Of a DNA stretch of 23,752 bases, positions 25-7,170 are shown one piece after another; positions within the stretch are counted from its first letter, which is position 1; the number at the start of each line of letters is the position of its first letter. The notes beneath the pieces are model-generated. The model was not told where the DNA came from, did no database searches, and saw nothing but the letters and a program-made list of their open reading frames with translations. Origin of the DNA: a virus. Position numbers and translations under genes: made by a program. The DNA lies in the UHGV virus genome UHGV-0369329; one strand, 5' to 3'.

Positions 25-99
25 GTCCTCTTAGTTAAATGGATATAACGAGCCCCTCCTAAGGGCTAATTGCAGGTTCGATTCCTGCAGGGGACACCA
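25..99 (+). tRNA. argW: tRNA-Arg, anticodon CCU, 75 nt with encoded CCA (argW-type)
   Basis: Cloverleaf readable directly: acceptor GTCCTCT/AGGGGAC, D-stem GTTA/TAAC, anticodon stem AGCCC/GGGCT with loop CTCCTAA (anticodon CCT), T-arm GCAGG-TTCGATT-CCTGC, discriminator A, CCA at 97-99. Sequence matches my recollection of E. coli argW. Confidence 0.9.
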
Positions 100-224: not shown

Positions 225-260
225 GTGGATAAAATAATTTTACCCACCGGATTTTTACCC

Positions 261-1418
261 ATGCTCACCGTTAAGCAGATTGAAGCAGCAAAGCCGAAAG
301 AAAAACCATACCGCCTTCTCGATGGTAATGGCCTGTACCTTTATGTTCCTGTATCCGGGAAAAAGGTATGGCAGCTTCGCTACAAGATTGACGGTAAGGA
401 AAAAATACTGACCGTCGGAAAATATCCGCTTATGACTTTGCAGGAGGCAAGGGATAAAGCATGGACCGCGAGGAAAGACATCTCGGTTGGCATCGATCCG
501 GTAAAAGCGAAAAAGGCTTCGTCTAATAACAATTCCTTTAGCGCCATTTACAAGGAATGGTACGAGCACAAGAAGCAAGTATGGTCAGTAGGGTATGCGA
601 CTGAACTTGCCAAAATGTTTGATGACGACATTTTACCCATCATCGGCGGCCTTGAGATTCAGGATATTGAGCCGATGCAACTGCTGGAAGTAATCCGCAG
701 ATTTGAAGATCGCGGTGCAATGGAGCGAGCCAACAAAGCCCGCAGAAGATGCGGCGAGGTTTTCCGTTACGCTATTGTCACCGGAAGGGCTAAATATAAC
801 CCAGCACCTGACCTTGCTGACGCCATGAAAGGATACCGCAAGAAGAACTTCCCGTTTCTTCCAGCAGACCAGATCCCTGCATTCAACAAAGCACTGGCAA
901 CATTTTCAGGAAGCATCGTATCGCTCATTGCGACCAAAGTTTTACGCTACACAGCCCTAAGAACGAAAGAGCTTCGTTCCATGCAATGGAAGAACGTCGA
1001 TTTTGAAAACAGGATTATCACTATCGACGCCAGTGTGATGAAGGGCCGCAAGATTCATGTTGTTCCTATGTCAGACCAGGTGGTTGAACTTCTCACTACG
1101 CTAAGCTCCATCACTAAACCAGTATCAGAGTTTGTTTTTGCCGGGCGCAACGATAAGAAGAAGCCAATCTGCGAGAACGCGGTATTGCTTGTGATCAAAC
1201 AAATCGGCTATGAGGGTCTGGAAAGCGGTCACGGATTCAGGCATGAATTCAGCACGATTATGAACGAGCACGAATGGCCTGCCGACGCCATTGAAGTGCA
1301 ACTGGCACATGCCAACGGCGGTTCTGTGCGCGGGATTTACAACCATGCTCAGTATCTCGATAAGCGCAGAGAAATGATGCAGTGGTGGGCGGACTGGCTT
1401 GATGAGAAGGTGGAGTGA
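261..1418 (+). CDS. intS: Tyrosine recombinase/integrase, P4-family with N-terminal DUF4102-type arm domain; IntS-like, 385 aa
   Basis: ORF track 225..1418 begins at a GTG; the in-frame ATG at 261 (MLTVKQIEAAKPKEKPYRLLDGNGLYLYV) gives 385 aa, matching the IntS N-terminus as I recall it. Catalytic signature present (HGFRHEF, VRGIYNHAQY). Lies directly downstream of the tRNA, co-directional. Confidence 0.9.
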   Translation: MLTVKQIEAAKPKEKPYRLLDGNGLYLYVPVSGKKVWQLRYKIDGKEKILTVGKYPLMTLQEARDKAWTARKDISVGIDPVKAKKASSNNNSFSAIYKEWYEHKKQVWSVGYATELAKMFDDDILPIIGGLEIQDIEPMQLLEVIRRFEDRGAMERANKARRRCGEVFRYAIVTGRAKYNPAPDLADAMKGYRKKNFPFLPADQIPAFNKALATFSGSIVSLIATKVLRYTALRTKELRSMQWKNVDFENRIITIDASVMKGRKIHVVPMSDQVVELLTTLSSITKPVSEFVFAGRNDKKKPICENAVLLVIKQIGYEGLESGHGFRHEFSTIMNEHEWPADAIEVQLAHANGGSVRGIYNHAQYLDKRREMMQWWADWLDEKVE

Positions 1419-1442
1419 ACCACCTTAACCACTATCGAAGAG

Positions 1443-1476
1443 CACAAAGCATTGCAATCAAGTGCAAAGCTTTGTG
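1443..1476. terminator. Stem-loop between convergent int and tailspike genes (14-bp stem with one mismatch, 6-nt loop)
   Basis: CACAAAGCATTGCA-atcaag-TGCAAAGCTTTGTG. No clean U-run on either side, so the terminator role is inferred from position only. Confidence 0.4.
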
Positions 1477-1498
1477 TCTAACACTTATTTAAACAACA

Positions 1499-3496
1499 TT
1501 ATATTGCAGATATTATAAAACATAATAATTCTTCATATCTTATTCCATATCGCTCACCCCCTTCTATAGATATTCTGCGTTCTCCAGTATCATATTCAAT
1601 TAATTTTTCATCACCGGATTCTTCATCAAAAATTATCTTTTTAGCAATTACTGGTTCGTATTCAGTTTCCCATTTATCATAGCAAAAAAGACCATAGTCG
1701 TTTGCATCAAGCCCTTCTTCAGCAAATGCTTTATATACATCTTGGGCAATAATGCCAAAATGTAATCTAGCATTTTCTCCTTTTTCAATTACTGAATCTA
1801 TAAATCTAAAACAACAAACCAAACCCTTTATTTTATATGCAACACGTCTCTCTGCATCAGTAATCGGTCTTTTATCAGTCTTAACTCGACCATCCGATGT
1901 GTTAATCGTTGAAGTGCCAGCAAATATTGTATTCCACCTTCTGGATGCTGAACCGCAATTTCTAGCGTTATCTGTTGCTGGTTGTACCGACGCATCAAAA
2001 CGAGCATAATTATTCTCATCAGAAACAGGTCCCATCAATCCACTCAAAAAAGGGAGCCCGCTCTGATTAGCAATTATTAATTGGTTGTCACCTGAAGAAA
2101 TTGCCGAACCGGCATTGGTTCCGATAAATATATTACCTGTTCCAGAGCTTAACGATCTACCAGATCTATATCCAAGCATTACATTGTTACTTGCCGAACC
2201 AATAGAATTAAGTGAGTCGGCTCCTACTGCGACATTATTCATCCCTGTAGATGTGCCTGTATAAGGGTTATCTATAGAAGAAATCCCTCTTCCTGATCCG
2301 CTACCAATATATGTATTGTTATCTCCATTTGTAATCTCCCTTCCGGATGCATTGCCTATAAATGTGTTATTATTTAGAATGTTATAAGACAACCTTTTGC
2401 CTGATTGGTCTGTAACAATTCCAGCTCGCATTCCAGCCGCTCGACCTATTGCAACATTACCACTACCAGTATGAAGTTGTTGTAATGCACTTGATCCTAC
2501 TGCAACATTAAAATTTCCTTCTTTATTTTCATTTAGGGCATCGCGCCCAATTCCAATTATGTTACTAGCTGTGGTTGATTTTTTGCACGCATTCACACCA
2601 ATTGCTACAATCTCAGTGCCAGTGCATGGCGATGTATCTGTGAGATCGTCTTGAAGGGTATCACCTGATAATACACCTGTCCCAATTGCTGTAATGTTAT
2701 TGCCCGTGCTAATGTTTCTTCCTGCACTTGGTCCAATCGCAACAACTTGCCCGGATATATCATTTCCATTATATATCTTGCCAGCATCAAAACCAAAAAA
2801 AACATTTCCAATTGTCTGAGCAGGATTTGCAAATGGAATAGGTTCGTCTCCTTTACTTTGTATTATTTTACCAGGGCCATAAAATTTTCCATTAATATAG
2901 TTCTCAATTAAATAAGTACCTTGTGGAACATAAACACCGTCAGGTGAAACTGAAGATGCATAGGAAAATATATGTGTTGCGTCAATATTGCCATTAACAA
3001 TGTCGCTAACATCTTCATGTTTTACAAAATCAAGAATACTAATATTCTCTGCATTTTTATCATGCTGTGTTCGTTTTGTAGAATTAATTAAAGGTTGTTT
3101 TACTGTGATTAATGAATCACCAAGCCCATCATCTGAACTTAAAAGTTCTTGCCTTAACTGATCCGGGTCATACTTCAGCACATTAGGAAAATAAAACTGC
3201 TGCGCACCATATGCATCATAAACAGCCATAGAATGGCCTTGCACAGTTACGAACTTGGCAATCTGTCCGTTATATACCGGATATCCGGCAGCGTTAATGA
3301 TTATTGGTTGCGAAACAGGAATGTGAGAACCGTCTTCGTTCTCTACATAAACCTGAATCTGGTTTTCAGGATTTACCGGGTCAGTGTCAATTTTACCGAT
3401 ATAAATTTTGCCATTGGCTACGGCTTTAAAAGAACGCGCCATAGTGAAGAGTTGCGAAGGCATACTCACTACAACATTGGCTGTAATGTCTGTCAT
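1499..3496 (-). CDS. Tailspike/tail fibre: P22 gp9-like N-terminal head-binding domain, glycine-rich repeat fibre, C-terminal intramolecular chaperone (S74-type) domain
   Basis: N-terminus [43 protein letters not shown]...VLKYDPDQ matches the P22 tailspike head-binding domain. The middle has many G-x-x-A/N-rich repeats. The C-terminus has the TSDGRVK autoproteolysis-type motif followed by a chaperone-like domain. GGAG RBS lies 8 nt upstream of the ATG at 3496. Confidence 0.85.
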
Positions 3497-3628
3497 TTAA
3501 TTTGCTCCAGATACAAGGAATCGCCGCAGCATGGCTACGGTTGGCATTTGTTACATACCGAAACGGTACGATTGTTGATTTGTACAGTGGGTTTTACGAT
3601 GCCATTCCACCCATTTGGTGAGACATTG

Positions 3629-3886
3629 ATGATGTACAGCAAATACGATGAGGCGCAGTTCCACTTGAGGCTTACACACGAGTTGCACGCTAAGATTAAG
3701 CAGCGTGCAAAAATGAATAACAGGTCTATCAATTCCGAAATTGTGGCTACGATGGAAGAATCACTCTCCAAACCATCACCTGTAAGCGGGTATCGTGATG
3801 AAGAAGAGAGGCTGGCCTCATTAATCTCGGAACGAGTAAAAGAAGTTGCGGCTGAAATTCTAAGGAAAGAAAAAACCCGCGATTAA
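3629..3886 (+). CDS. Mnt-like ribbon-helix-helix repressor, 85 aa
   Basis: C-terminal part of track ORF 3233..3886. FHLRLTHELHAKIKQRAKMNNRSINSEIV...SKPSPVSGYRDEEERLASL aligns along its whole length with P22 Mnt as I recall it (FNFRMPMEVREKLKFRAEANGRSMNSELL...SKPSPVTGYRNDAERLADE). The 5' part of the track ORF is antisense to the tailspike gene. Confidence 0.75.
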   Translation: MMYSKYDEAQFHLRLTHELHAKIKQRAKMNNRSINSEIVATMEESLSKPSPVSGYRDEEERLASLISERVKEVAAEILRKEKTRD

Positions 3887-3900
3887 GCGGGTTTAGTTTT
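3873..3900. terminator. Bidirectional intrinsic terminator between convergent Mnt-like gene and antirepressor-type gene
   Basis: AAACCCGC-gattaa-GCGGGTTT, followed by AGTTTT on plus and by TTTCTTT on minus. The TAA stop of the Mnt-like gene (3884-3886) sits in the loop. Confidence 0.65.
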
Positions 3901-3912
3901 CATTATAAAATG

Positions 3913-4641
3913 TTACGCCACATTTGAGCCATGTAGCAGGTGTTGTAGTGCTTTAACGCCTTCAGAATTGTAACGGAACGCCTCTACCTGTTTGCTGGAA
4001 TGCGCCGATTTATCTAGGAAGAACTTCCCGTACTGCTCAGTTTTGAGGTTGTTTGCGTTAGCAATGCGACCAATCTTGTTGGCCGTTACTCCAAGCTGCT
4101 CTGCAACCTCCCCTGCTGAGTAGTAATGCTCTTCTATTGCCGGAAGAGGTATTGCATTAAAACCAACGAGCGGGTTGATTATACTTGCTGCCGCTGTCTG
4201 CTTTGCCTCAGGCGCAAGATTTGGCATCAGATCGAACAGATTGGTAACAGCTTCAACCGTCATTTTCAATGTTCTCGCTTGACGATACTCAACAAGTCCA
4301 CTCGCTGATTTACCGCTTTTAATGTGCGCTTCTTGCATACTTTCAAGTTGGTCTACCAGTGAGCGGCGAACGGCTTTTGACTCGCGAGCGGCAACTCGCA
4401 ATGCTTGCTTGATTGACATCTCAATGATAACCATCGAAGTTTTGTTCGCTTTTTGCACTACACTTTTTGTGTAGTGCTCTCCATCCAATTCATCTTCAAT
4501 TTTCTCGATGAATTTGTTATTACGAACCTCCGGCTCACCGCACTGTCTACGAGCCTGATTTACCATCTCAAGCAGGCGCTGGCTGTCAATGGTTTTATCC
4601 GTGACAACGGATCCGATGTTTGCTACATTCTTAAAAGTCAT
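3913..4641 (-). CDS. Antirepressor-type protein with C-terminal KilAC/ANT-like segment, 242 aa
   Basis: Start moved to the ATG at 4641 (MTFKNVANIG...), which has an AAGGAA RBS 6 nt upstream; the track ORF starts 17 codons earlier without an RBS. C-terminal YSAGEVAEQLGVTANKIGRIANANNLKTEQYGKFF resembles the KilAC/ANT domain of phage antirepressors. Family assignment is from memory. Confidence 0.55.
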   Translation of the reverse strand: MTFKNVANIGSVVTDKTIDSQRLLEMVNQARRQCGEPEVRNNKFIEKIEDELDGEHYTKSVVQKANKTSMVIIEMSIKQALRVAARESKAVRRSLVDQLESMQEAHIKSGKSASGLVEYRQARTLKMTVEAVTNLFDLMPNLAPEAKQTAAASIINPLVGFNAIPLPAIEEHYYSAGEVAEQLGVTANKIGRIANANNLKTEQYGKFFLDKSAHSSKQVEAFRYNSEGVKALQHLLHGSNVA

Positions 4642-4710
4642 TAGGCATTCCTTATGTGGTAGTAAGGGTGTGACATAGGCCGCCAGCAGCACACTGGCGG
4701 TTTTCTTTTT
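4636..4710 (+). ncRNA. Candidate sar-like antisense RNA, about 75 nt, opposite the RBS and start of the 3913..4641 gene
   Basis: Extended -10 TGcTACATT at 4621-4629 (possible -35 GTGACA at 4601-4606, 17-bp spacer). Intrinsic terminator CCGCCAG-cagcaca-CTGGCGG at 4680-4700 followed by TTTTCTTTTT at 4701-4710. The transcript would be complementary to the AAGGAA RBS (4648-4653) and ATG (4639-4641) of the minus-strand gene. No credible plus-strand CDS here. Confidence 0.45.
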
Positions 4711-4729
4711 GCGCCGTCCGGCGCACCAA

Positions 4730-5356
4730 TCAATGAATCCATTCCTCGCCGCGCAGTTTTGCCAGCATTGGCTGAGCGTTCTTTACGACAAAATTGTTGG
4801 TATCAAGATTCTTCATTTCACGAAGAAGTGATTTCTTGGTTTCTTCTGACATATAGCGAGTCTCATATGCGATATCGTAAATCCTTCCTGAAAGCTCAGA
4901 ACAAATTTGCTTCATTCCTGGGTAGATGTGTTTGCACATTTGTTGACTCTTCTCCATCCACAATTGTAAGTAGCAGAGATTAACCAGTTCTTCGTCAGTA
5001 AACTGTTTTGCAATCGGTGAGCATTCTGCCTGCCGATCCAAAATATCCAGCACCCAGCGGCGGAACTCTTTGGCTACCGGAGTGCGAGCAAACATCGCGA
5101 TTAGGTGGGCACCGCGTAGTGAGAAAACTCGCACTTTTTTGCGATAATTTCCTGAGGTACTCACTTCGAGTACCTGAGTCATTCCGGCGCTAAACTCATC
5201 GCTATACTTGTTATAAATCATTGTTACTGCACGACTATTTGCGTATTTAAGTGCAGATGCAATATTAGATGATGTAAACCAAACACCATGCATATCACGG
5301 GTGGGCACCAACTCAACTCCGTGGAAGTTGTAATCTGATTTTGCTACAATATTCAT
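4730..5356 (-). CDS. Antirepressor (Ant-like) with Bro-N/AntA-type N-terminal domain, 208 aa
   Basis: Start moved to the ATG at 5356 (MNIVAKSDYNFHGVELVP...) with an AAGGAA RBS. HGVWFTSSNIASALKYANSRAVTMI...VRVFSLRGAHLIAMFARTPVAKEFRRWVLDIL fits the Bro-N/antirepressor N-terminal pattern. Sits downstream of the Arc-like gene as in P22 arc-ant. Confidence 0.6.
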   Translation of the reverse strand: MNIVAKSDYNFHGVELVPTRDMHGVWFTSSNIASALKYANSRAVTMIYNKYSDEFSAGMTQVLEVSTSGNYRKKVRVFSLRGAHLIAMFARTPVAKEFRRWVLDILDRQAECSPIAKQFTDEELVNLCYLQLWMEKSQQMCKHIYPGMKQICSELSGRIYDIAYETRYMSEETKKSLLREMKNLDTNNFVVKNAQPMLAKLRGEEWIH

Positions 5357-5431
5357 GTTAGTTTCCTTGCATACGGTTACTGACATAGAAGCCCGACTCG
5401 TGTTCGCGCACTGTCGGGCTTCGCTATTTTT
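5357..5431 (+). ncRNA. Candidate sar-like antisense RNA, about 75 nt, opposite the ant RBS, terminating at the 3' end of the arc-like gene
   Basis: Extended -10 TGcTACAAT at 5342-5350. Terminator hairpin GAAGCCCGAC...GTCGGGCTTC (5388-5422) followed by TATTTTT (5425-5431). The transcript would cover the complement of the ant RBS (5364-5369). Same architecture as P22 sar (promoter near the ant start, terminator at the arc end). Confidence 0.5.
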
Positions 5432-5597
5432 ATGTCCTAGCATTCTTCTCTCCAATCAGTCCGTACACTTTTCTCAATTGATAAATAAGTTCCGTGTTGA
5501 ACTGTCGACACTCTTTTTCTCCATTTCTTTCAATCGCCTTCCTTACATCCTCTGGGAAACGAACCTTGCGTTGATACATGTCTTTTGCTTTTTCCAT
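5430..5597 (-). CDS. Arc-like small ribbon-helix-helix protein, 55 aa; below the length cutoff of the ORF track
   Basis: Hand-translated codon by codon: MEKAKDMYQRKVRFPEDVRKAIERNGEKECRQFNTELIYQLRKVYGLIGEKNART. Strong RBS AAGGAG 5 nt before the ATG at 5597. A beta-strand-like QRKVRFPEDV followed by helix is RHH-like, though the NG...E motif is less canonical than in Arc. Position is upstream of ant and divergent from the Mnt-like gene, as for P22 arc. Confidence 0.5.
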   Translation of the reverse strand: MEKAKDMYQRKVRFPEDVRKAIERNGEKECRQFNTELIYQLRKVYGLIGEKNART

Positions 5598-5720
5598 CTC
5601 CACTCCTTAAATAGCCCCACTGTGGGGCAATCGAAATTGTCACACCGTGCGTCATTGAAGTCAACCCCACCGTGGGGCATAATTTACTTATTGTGAATTT
5701 TTCCTGTTTGGACTAATGGT
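5598..5720. promoter_or_regulatory. Divergent promoter/operator region (Pant-like leftward, Pmnt-like rightward) with twin palindromic operators
   Basis: Palindrome 1 GCCCCACtGTGGGGC at 5614-5628; palindrome 2 CCCCACcGTGGGG at 5665-5677. Plus-strand promoter TTGAAG (5655-5660), 17-bp spacer, CATAAT (5678-5683), with palindrome 2 in the spacer. Minus-strand promoter TTGACT (complement of 5659-5664), 17-bp spacer, GACAAT (complement of 5636-5641), with palindrome 1 over the predicted start/leader. The two -35 hexamers overlap. Confidence 0.6.
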
Positions 5721-6095
5721 ATGAGTAGAGAAGACCCTCAACTTCGGATTAGGCTTCCTGTTGAATTAAAAAAAATAATTGAAGCGTCATCAAAACAAAA
5801 TAATCGTTCTATGAATGCTGAGATTGTCACTCTGCTTGAGTTGGCGATTCGTGTTTGTCGTGATTTTGGGCCGGAGGATGGTCCTATCGTTCAGCAGTTT
5901 AAAGAACAACTAGATGCGATAAACAGAAAATATGATAAAATCGAGCATGAAAAACTTATACCTCAACTTTTAGAAATCATAGAAAAACAGAAAAAACAAG
6001 TAGATAAACTTATTAGCATGGTTGAAAGATCAATTCCTCTTTCAGAGGAATATAAGCAGAAATATCTTGGTGATGACAACAAAAAACCCACCTGA
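5721..6095 (+). CDS. Mnt-like RHH repressor with extended coiled-coil-like C-terminus, 124 aa; positional equivalent of P22 mnt
   Basis: N-terminus MSREDPQLRIRLPVELKKIIEASSKQNNRSMNAEIV matches the Mnt N-terminus (MARDDPHFNFRMPMEVREKLKFRAEANGRSMNSELL as I recall). Divergent from the arc-like gene with the operator region between. Confidence 0.7.
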   Translation: MSREDPQLRIRLPVELKKIIEASSKQNNRSMNAEIVTLLELAIRVCRDFGPEDGPIVQQFKEQLDAINRKYDKIEHEKLIPQLLEIIEKQKKQVDKLISMVERSIPLSEEYKQKYLGDDNKKPT

Positions 6096-6110: not shown

Positions 6111-7079
6111 TTAGATTTCTGGTTTCATTCTTCCGAAAACCTTTTCTATTCCTTTTTCGTATTCTTCTCTTGTCTCACTCATCGCTGCGACACCAAGAAG
6201 CTTACCGATATGCTGACGCAAAGCCTTGACACCAATTTCAGAAAGGAACAGATGCAACTTATCAGATTGTTTTCCGTTCTCGTCTCGGCTGGCTCTAATT
6301 TGTTCAAGGATTTTACCTTTACTCTTTGCTAGCGGGGTGTATATCTGCATGTTGGTTAGCTGCCCAAAACGAATAGGCCGTCCTTTCTCTGGCCTATTCA
6401 GGCCGTACAGTCGATACCACTCCTCGTATAGCTCATCTGGAAATTCCTTTTCATATTGACGAGCCTCTTCACGAACAAACGCTTTGAACTCGTCAATGAC
6501 AGCCTGAACTTCTGGACGATAACCAGCAAGCGCATACGCAACCCCCTTAATTCCCGCCTTAGCGGAGGCATTAATAAGTCTCTGTGCTGCGGCGGCTGCC
6601 TTTAACCGTGATTGTGGTAGATCGTCATTATCTTTGGCTTCTATTAGTGCCCTACCAATATCAACAATTGCTGTAATGTCATAACCTAACGCTTGATGAA
6701 CGGTTTTAGACTTCGAAGTAAGTTGAAATTTATAGGGATTTTCCATTTTTCGCTGCAATTCTAGATCTCGGTATTTGCTCATATACTGAGCGCCAAGCAG
6801 TTGATCTAAATCCCTGGCATGTTCACCAATCCCTAGCAACTGAGATAATCCAGTTTTCGTAACAACGACAGTTTTCGACTCGTCATCCAGTACATAACAT
6901 TCAGCATCAATGCCAAAATCATCTAAAAAGTTACCACGATGAGTTGCCCTGAGAATCTTACTTTTCCATCTTGCAGCAGCTGCTTTCTTTGCTATTTCAG
7001 AACGCTGCTCTTTAGTCAGCGACTTTGCGCGAGCGATCCCGCCCTTAGCTTTCCCTTCGCCACTTTTCTTTTCAGTCAT
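6111..7079 (-). CDS. Hypothetical 322-aa protein in the sieA/accessory slot; basic N-terminus with HTH-like SEIAKKAAAARW motif
   Basis: Start moved to the ATG at 7079 (MTEKKSGEGKAKGGIARAKSLTKEQRSEIAKKAAAARW...). Hydrophilic with no obvious TM segment. Not recognisable as any P22 structural protein. A possible P63C-type assignment is only a vague recollection. Confidence 0.55.
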   Translation of the reverse strand: MTEKKSGEGKAKGGIARAKSLTKEQRSEIAKKAAAARWKSKILRATHRGNFLDDFGIDAECYVLDDESKTVVVTKTGLSQLLGIGEHARDLDQLLGAQYMSKYRDLELQRKMENPYKFQLTSKSKTVHQALGYDITAIVDIGRALIEAKDNDDLPQSRLKAAAAAQRLINASAKAGIKGVAYALAGYRPEVQAVIDEFKAFVREEARQYEKEFPDELYEEWYRLYGLNRPEKGRPIRFGQLTNMQIYTPLAKSKGKILEQIRASRDENGKQSDKLHLFLSEIGVKALRQHIGKLLGVAAMSETREEYEKGIEKVFGRMKPEI

Positions 7080-7170
7080 AATGCAAGCACCTTTGTTGTG
7101 ATGTATGCTTGCATTATATACACTGTACACACATACAAGCAAGCATAAAGCTAAAACAAAATGCTTGCAT
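7080..7170. repeat. Four copies of a TGCTTGCATTA / ATGCWWGCAT motif in alternating orientation in a divergent intergenic region
   Basis: ATGCAAGCAC at 7081-7090 (reverse), ATGCTTGCAT at 7105-7114, AAGCAAGCAT at 7137-7146 (reverse, partial), ATGCTTGCAT at 7161-7170. Copies at 7105 and 7161 share ATGCTTGCATTA; the copy at 7081 abuts the start codon of the 322-aa gene. Confidence 0.6.

Follow-up and report, generated by a model that had tools for sequence, protein, structure and literature searches.

The window considered here, a 23,752-nucleotide (nt) stretch of the virus genome UHGV-0369329 taken as a whole, belongs to a P22-like (Lederbergvirus-type) prophage, of which it is one end. It includes a region resembling immI of phage P22, the classic example of an antirepressor under antisense control, for which the small RNA sar is the only regulator of this kind to have been described. 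In the immI-like region, an Arc-like gene (arc, 5430–5603, minus strand) with an Arc domain is followed on the same strand by two antirepressor-type genes. The first is ant1 (4730–5356), which has Bro-N and P22_AR_C domains; the ant2 cassette starts right behind it, and its gene (3913–4641) encodes a protein of 242 amino acids assigned to PHROG 1726 ('anti-repressor'). Our subject is a short unit on the opposite, plus strand at 4601–4710, termed module 2, which overlaps the start of ant2 and consists of a promoter, a putative antisense RNA and an intrinsic terminator. A unit of the same architecture, module 1, lies across the start of ant1. An initial annotation had drawn attention to both and had read them as a duplicated control unit.

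The promoter of module 2 is embedded in the coding sequence of ant2. Its –35 hexamer, GTGACA (5/6, 4601–4606), lies over ant2 codons 12–14 (V-V-T) and is separated by a 17-nt spacer from the –10 hexamer TACATT (4624–4629), which together with a TG at 4621–4622 makes up the extended –10 element TGcTACATT (TGCTACATT, 4621–4629) over codons 5–7 (N-V-A). The –35 hexamer had been overlooked in the initial annotation; all of the elements that it did list (extended –10, terminator, T-run, ATG and AAGGAA) are located exactly where it placed them. The terminator (4677–4710) is formed by a stem at 4677–4686/4694–4703, a loop at 4687–4693 and a T-run at 4701–4710, and it reads CCGCCAG (4680–4686), CAGCACA in the loop, CTGGCGG (4694–4700) and TTTTCTTTTT (4701–4710). 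In a 20-kb scan, its hairpin (4677–4703, 10 pairs, of which 6 are G-C) is the top-ranked terminator-like site, and it has the G+C-rich stem, the T-run on the transcribed strand and the covariation (described below) of an intrinsic terminator. The mRNA target site, on the minus strand at 4639–4653, comprises the ATG of ant2 (4641–4639, 'cat' on the plus strand) and, 6 nt upstream of it, the Shine-Dalgarno (SD) sequence AAGGAA (4653–4648, 'ttcctt' on the plus strand).

The annotated sar RNA of P22 starts 7 nt past the last base of its –10 element, and the start of the module 2 RNA is therefore placed at A4636. With the 3′ end put within the T-run, the predicted antisense RNA would be ~73 nt in length (4636–~4708, plus strand) and would cover both the SD sequence and the ATG of ant2, which agrees with the earlier proposal of a sar-like unit antisense to the ribosome-binding site and start codon of 3913–4641. 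Its predicted fold (–25.1 kcal/mol, z –2.4) consists of a 5′ stem-loop and the terminator stem-loop. In the former, stem-loop I (4637–4674), the 5′ GUC pairs with a GAC that immediately precedes the terminator, and the anti-SD sequence UUCCUU is part of an inner helix. The module 2 RNA has 73 nt of unbroken complementarity to the leader of ant2, its own target, versus 8 nt to that of ant1, and the sar RNA of module 1 mirrors this, with long complementarity to the ant1 leader and short to the ant2 leader (8 versus 73–74 nt); each RNA should therefore be specific for its own target. Contiguous complementarity was used for this comparison because the non-cognate energies given by RNAduplex (–43 to –45 kcal/mol) are inflated by long looped duplexes. 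In functional terms, module 2 has the attributes of the sar-type class, with a promoter within an antirepressor-type gene (codons 5–14) and an RNA that would lie opposite the SD sequence and start codon; in structural terms, predicted folds and terminator covariation point to a small two-stem-loop RNA with a Rho-independent terminator.

One 9-mer and a hairpin in a single sequence could be fortuitous, and promoter-like sites are not enriched in the window, where 27 were found against 28.5 in shuffled sequences. For the combined geometry GACA-N14-TGnTAnnnT, the window has two occurrences where 0.14 would be expected. Relatives of ant2 were gathered down to ~59% identity over the full length (80 IMG/VR loci and 34 genome loci), from hosts that include Serratia, Citrobacter, Kluyvera, Buttiauxella, Erwinia and Pantoea, and these loci give 32 distinct versions of the module 2 unit. 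When a second gene family, introduced below, is added, the pattern of xxGACA, 17 nt with TG, and TAnnnT is present at the same position in 168 of 168 loci, the –10 hexamer being TACATT in 106, TAAATT in 58 and TAAAGT in 4, and the predicted RNA is 63–79 nt long throughout. Without exception, the 88 ant2-family loci have GTGACA as the –35 sequence, a spacing of 17 nt and the TG, and the sequence of the spacer varies freely. A crude scan of all 878 open reading frames (ORFs) of the loci, in which a terminator was required just upstream of the start codon, returned the combination of an antisense TGnTAnnnT and an antisense terminator near the start codon at 86 ant2 genes, at one member of the second family (in phage SPN3UB) and at two unrelated ORFs. 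Chance resemblance without function is already contradicted by these data, by compensatory changes and codon constraint and by detection across families with a covariance model, and we regard it as exceedingly improbable.

The codons that carry the promoter appear to be under selection at the level of DNA and not of protein. Codons 5–7 of the relatives occur as AAT GTA GCA (NVA), AAT TTA GCA (NLA), ACT TTA GCA (TLA), AAT TTA TCA (NLS) and AAT TTA ACA (NLT), such that the TG and the –10 bases T1, A2 and T6 are kept despite amino-acid replacements. Where codon 6 specifies leucine it is TTA in 9/9 representative lineages, versus 3% of the 352 leucine codons elsewhere in the same genes, and alanine at codon 7 is GCA in 16/16, versus 26% of the alanine codons elsewhere; overall, codon 7 is xCA in 18/18, the serine and threonine replacements being TCA and ACA. 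Pairwise synonymous diversity is 0.007 over codons 1–10 and 0.12 over codons 11–20, and ranges from ~0.08 to 0.46 when the whole of the gene behind codon 10 is divided into bins of 10 codons.

The second family came from Salmonella phage SPN3UB (L003), in which ant1 is followed by a different gene, gp22, which belongs to PHROG 4936 and has anti-repressor-like relatives. BLASTP detects no similarity of gp22 to ant2. A unit of the module 2 type is nonetheless present at gp22 (2436–2532, minus strand of the locus), and the same antisense unit is found in 80 of 80 IMG/VR relatives of gp22 (L119–L198, ~1430–1560, minus strand of the loci). In this family the –35 hexamer is TCGACA, supplied by V-D-P codons, and its distance from TGnTACATT or TGcTAAATT is again precisely 17 nt. 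A 5/6 –35 hexamer with this spacing is thus provided by V-V-T codons in one family and by V-D-P codons in the other, two coding contexts that are unrelated.

These observations bear on the proposal that the conserved element is an insulating terminator only, which stops stray plus-strand transcription such as read-through from the Mnt/Arc-like (ribbon-helix-helix) gene at ~3599–3886, the promoter being a by-product of coding. Such a gene does lie on the plus strand downstream of ant2, convergent with it, and the abundance of promoter-like hexamers in the window, no greater overall than chance, is in keeping with a coding by-product. Against this, the promoter bases persist through amino-acid changes, against codon usage and in both coding contexts; the cassette terminator is kept in loci that have no mnt-like gene; and a bidirectional terminator (3873–3894) already ends the mnt-like gene of the window. 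Insulation as the sole function is thus quite unlikely.

A covariance model, R1, was built from ant2-family units only. It finds the held-out gp22-family units with E values of 1e-8 to 5e-4, one per locus and in each case at the gene's 5′ end, and it matches 72 loci. The window itself matches at 4636–4710 with 74.9 bits, a score to be read in the knowledge that this sequence was in the training set. The pattern of the R1 family is present in the window in full: xxGACA, 17 nt, TAnnnT and, 63–79 nt on, a hairpin of the CCGCCAG or the GCCGGTAG type with a T-run. R1 has no match in four loci in which the ant2 protein has a different N terminus (L070–L073), nor in the distant N-terminal-domain relatives L097–L118, so that not every member of the ant2 protein family has the unit. 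In L070–L073 (gene at 2501–3196) the N terminus is approximately MVNNIANHSS... and the upstream region is different; there is an antisense TGcAATATT, and the hairpin is no more than weak and lacks a good T-run. These loci may hold a degenerate or alternative version of the unit.

The loci have the appearance of mosaics. One gp22 subtype and L087, an ant2 locus from Kluyvera, have the N terminus MTSLNLA in common, together with a 38-nt identical stretch, TGCTAAATTTAATGAAGTCATTAAGTGGTCCTTATGAC, that runs from the –10 element through the leader (2439–2545 in L087, ~1434–1545 in L182/L128). Since these features are common to genes of the ant2 and gp22 families, a recombination joint would lie within the promoter spacer, at about codon 7. 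At the other end, identity between loci ceases right after the T-run, and 34 different upstream flanks occur among the 168 loci. The flank seen most often, in 92 loci, consists of the 3′ end of ant1-type genes and accompanies both cassette families; ant2 is nearly always a second gene, behind another antirepressor-type gene.

The terminator provides evidence of a different kind. When 57 distinct sequences are aligned on the basis of a model, 99.2% of the cells of the terminator stem are paired, and double-sided changes are seen in 4 of 9 terminator pairs (26 cells), with compensatory examples such as GCCGATAG/CTATCGGC, CCGCCAA/TTGGCGG and ACCAGCAG/CTGCTGGT. The pairing values were reached by 0 of 500 shuffles and by no slid register. 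In 64 terminator cells there are G-U pairs, which become C-A mismatches on the sense strand; as the T-run too is present on the plus strand only, the strand that folds is therefore taken to be the antisense one. The antisense strand is also more stable than the sense strand in 19 of 19 diverse variants.

It is conceivable that the helices act instead in the ant2 mRNA, by sequestering the SD sequence or by stabilising or processing the polycistronic RNA, the antisense RNA being irrelevant. The sense leader folds as well (–34.5 kcal/mol for 118 nt, z –1.8), and its SD region is partly paired in the window variant. However, the T-run is on the wrong side for a function of the sense strand, the mismatches and the stability comparison both count against it, and the conserved promoter would be left unexplained, so that we consider a sense-strand leader structure very unlikely as the explanation of the unit.

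The 5′ portion of the RNA also seems to be maintained as a structure. A 5′ stem-loop in which the 5′ end is paired just before the terminator is present in the minimum-free-energy fold of 18 of 19 variants and arises from differing sequences; in L016 there is the inner helix only, without the full stem-loop I. Where AGUCAU (Met-Thr) at the 5′ end is replaced by AAGCAU (Met-Leu), GAUGU takes the place of UGAC as its partner, within a long CAUUAAUUA/UAGUUGAUG helix, and in most diverged lineages the anti-SD sequence is found in an apical loop. Alignments of stem-loop I by MAFFT and by covariance model are inconsistent, and therefore this stem is described through per-sequence folds, qualitatively, with no formal covariation count.

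Constraint on the body of the RNA is also relevant to transcriptional interference, by which a promoter convergent with transcription from Pant or of the late operon would lessen read-through into ant2 and the tailspike gene, with the RNA itself secondary. The module 2 promoter is near-consensus and convergent with the operon, and the layout equals that of Psar and Pant in P22, the interplay of which was reportedly the subject of papers from 1987. Interference alone, however, needs neither a constrained RNA body, with covariation in its terminator and a 5′ stem-loop rebuilt from different sequences, nor an RNA that always spans the SD sequence and the ATG. As the principal function it is unlikely; interference and RNA-based repression are in any case not mutually exclusive.

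We interpret 4601–4710 on the plus strand as a distinct, hitherto unannotated, sar-type cis-antisense RNA gene that would block the translation of ant2, and we would put the probability of this reading at about 0.72. That the unit is real is very likely because it is conserved in about 170 related phage loci, and the comparison of sequences lends good support to sar-like control of ant2. The mRNA in question would be that of the arc-ant1-ant2 operon, the presumed source of which is a Pant-like promoter (5636–5664, minus strand; TTGACT, 17 nt and GACAAT, with TG) upstream of arc, in the same layout as in P22. A promoter scan found no sense promoter between ant1 and ant2, and ant2 is therefore presumably co-transcribed with ant1.

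By analogy with P22 sar, the mechanism may be envisaged as follows. The near-consensus σ70 promoter in ant2 codons 5–14 would fire against the arc-ant1-ant2 operon, giving a transcript that starts ~3 nt inside the ant2 coding region, crosses the ATG and AAGGAA and ends at the strong intrinsic terminator in the spacer between ant1 and ant2. Folded, as P22 sar is, into a 5′ stem-loop and a terminator stem-loop, this RNA would pair with the ant2 leader on the arc-ant1-ant2 or late-operon transcript, mask the SD sequence and ATG and so block ribosome binding, the pairing possibly triggering cleavage of the duplex. In this way, ant2 would gain a post-transcriptional brake of its own, independent of the canonical sar over ant1, to which the convergent promoter may add transcriptional interference. 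That an RNA is produced, with these ends and with repression of translation as its effect, is what we infer from the arrangement and conservation of the elements.

A number of points weigh against this interpretation. An antirepressor function of ant2 is suggested by just its PHROG label and the position of its gene, the protein having no sequence match in Pfam, NCBIfam or the PDB. In the window-type variant the anti-SD sequence is held in a helix, where fast pairing is less favoured than in a loop, and the predicted fold is only moderately above shuffled sequences, stem-loop I having a mean z of –1.3 and the whole RNA the value given above. Selection on translation initiation can also yield low synonymous diversity and A/T-rich 5′ codons, but fails to account for the exact choice of codons and for the fixed –35 codons, which contain G and C. 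Finally, related loci are phylogenetically non-independent, and the raw counts therefore overstate the number of independent events.

The relationship of module 2 to sar can be considered through module 1, which lies about 720 bp away at 5342–5432 on the plus strand (extended –10 TGcTACAAT at 5342–5350, RNA predicted at ~5357–5430). The ATG of the gene that it faces is at 5354–5356, which corrects the earlier delimitation and gives ant1 the coordinates used here. Module 1 is a true homologue of P22 sar: the two have a significant local alignment (p<0.0005) and the same two-stem-loop fold. The Rfam model of sar, RF00262, has no match in 4400–5750 even at E≤10, nor in the whole window at its gathering score of 43 bits, and scores P22 sar at 97.8 bits with the same library; it is thus too narrow and misses diverged sar genes such as module 1. 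Otherwise the Rfam matches amounted to noise: SgrS at 13 bits, and symR at 24 bits on module 1. In three other loci (L159, SPN3UB and L089) a sar that RF00262 recognises lies ~660–730 nt upstream of the new unit, in the same tandem layout as in the window; in Escherichia phage JEP4 (L001) no sar reaches the RF00262 gathering score.

The initial annotation had taken the two modules for paralogues, and the pairwise alignment that it proposed does not sustain this. Similarity is confined to a 17-nt promoter stretch, ATCyGAT(G)TTTGCTACA (p=0.0005 versus shuffles), which spans a 1-nt gap, and the RNA body of module 2 aligns neither with that of module 1 (p=0.16) nor with P22 sar (p=0.93), the only body motif common to modules 1 and 2 being TGACATAG. 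Reciprocal model tests were likewise negative: R1 has no match to P22 sar or to module 1, and module 2 does not belong to the sar family by RF00262 score or by sequence homology. The promoter cores are indeed alike, as had been claimed, but this likeness is not read as a sign of duplication because it is not conserved over the module 2 family, in which the spacer varies; the gap, moreover, means that the reading frames differ. The common TTGCTACAwT is the form that an extended –10 element has to take on x-TA/GCA codons. The architectural likeness of modules 1 and 2 is real; homology between them is unproven and, if it exists, ancient.

Two such units in one immunity region had been thought unusual. 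This is so for the literature that was searched, and not in nature. A match to the 1.7-kb two-cassette region (3900–5620 of the window) is present in 163 of 5426 complete Escherichia coli genomes, including HS and 55989, in the latter at NC_011748 2671498–2673001, and at least 80% of the region is present in 36 of the 163; no noncoding RNA is annotated at the region in the matched E. coli genomes. The same arrangement is also found in many IMG/VR contigs. In E. coli HS (NC_009800, 327076–329838), the region is interrupted by an IS3-family transposase, which fits the ant moron with an IS3 element described for HS-1 in the epsilon34 paper (PMC2629481). As for published accounts, full-text literature searches returned nothing on this unit. 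The epsilon34 genome and 'ant moron' survey, the work on UAB_Phi20, a 2026 profiling of small noncoding RNAs of P22, a 2025 review of phage small RNAs and Salmonella prophage transcriptomics all have only sar in immI and no second antisense unit, an earlier description elsewhere being possible.

Comparison with known systems helps to define what is distinctive about module 2. P22 sar pairs with the ant leader, blocks its translation and is required for proper lysogenisation (PMC12197685; PMC2629481). Like sar, module 2 has an extended –10 element inside the first codons of an antirepressor gene, convergent with Pant, and sits in the spacer after the preceding cistron; its predicted RNA is likewise ~70 nt long, with a 5′ stem-loop and a terminator stem-loop, and complementary to the SD region of its target. 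It differs in having an RNA body without significant sequence similarity, such that neither model recognises the other RNA, and in having a good –35 hexamer. The module 2 RNA would start ~3 nt inside the coding region and cover the ATG, in contrast to P22 sar, the start of which lies 1 nt upstream of that codon. Module 2 also serves a second cistron, behind another antirepressor gene and not behind arc, and the unit is common to two non-homologous antirepressor families.

Among other phage RNAs, c4 is encoded upstream of its target and on the target's strand, arises by processing of the operon transcript and works by way of short stretches of complementarity. Module 2, in contrast, would give a fully complementary convergent transcript. 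The likeness lies in the predicted action of a small phage RNA against ribosome access to an antirepressor message, c4 of phages P1 and P7 repressing icd-ant translation with a specificity determined by base pairing (PMC12197685). The OOP RNA of lambdoid phages, which is annotated in P22, also resembles module 2 in being a short cis-antisense RNA with an intrinsic terminator and a lysis-lysogeny gene as its target, and is constitutively promoted. Unlike module 2, OOP overlaps the 3′ end of cII/c1, acts through RNase III-dependent decay and not through masking of the ribosome-binding site, and targets an activator.

The remainder of the window contains the following features. A tRNA-Arg gene with anticodon CCT (25–99, plus strand) directly adjoins the integrase gene (225–1418, plus strand) and is likely to be the attachment-site tRNA; the tailspike gene follows at 1499–3496 on the minus strand. 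The Mnt/Arc-like gene at ~3599–3886 lies between tailspike and ant2, and a further, divergent Mnt/Arc-like gene is found at 5721–6095 on the plus strand, so that, with the former counted, the immI-like region of the window has three Arc-fold regulators. The mnt-like gene next to ant2 is missing from a minority of ant2 loci. A short inverted repeat, GCGCCGTCCGGCGC, occupies 4711–4724, right after the T-run of module 2 and before the stop codon of ant1 (4730–4732), and similar GCGCC...GCGC repeats are seen in other ant1-type flanks. Between the divergent mnt-like gene and the ejection-protein genes there is a gene for a P63C-domain protein (6111–7142, minus strand, PHROG 2384), in the place occupied in P22 by sieA and orf59a; ejection and virion genes follow the immI-like region. 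Among isolated phages, JEP4 and Klebsiella phage phiKp_30 come closest.

The comparative data suggest that two antirepressor cistrons are carried by many enterobacterial prophages, P22-like and other, and that the second cistron has a conserved antisense RNA gene of its own. This candidate gene has a sequence unlike that of sar and is found neither in Rfam nor in genome annotations, and what is gained is a candidate RNA family, with a seed alignment and a model. The new unit would explain how antirepressors can be stacked without the loss of tight control. It also offers a strong case of dual coding, in which the N terminus of a protein is shaped by an antisense promoter, and a simple experimental system (phage JEP4 and the prophages of E. 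coli 55989 and HS) for cassette-specific RNA immunity. A more tentative idea, which we think more likely to be wrong than right, is that the antirepressor genes of enterobacterial temperate phages are portable cassettes that carry their own sar-type RNAs and thereby provide an immunity code that acts in trans. Each cassette would extend from the terminator across the leader to codon ~7 and so include the –10 element; the gene body behind it would be interchangeable but would have to supply a –35 hexamer at 17 nt, and the conserved terminator and T-run would serve as the recombination joint, in line with the variety of upstream contexts. The RNAs, made constitutively in a lysogen, would act in trans on a superinfecting phage and keep its matching antirepressor silent, and tandem arrays of sar and the new unit would then amount to a combinatorial, RNA-based immunity code.

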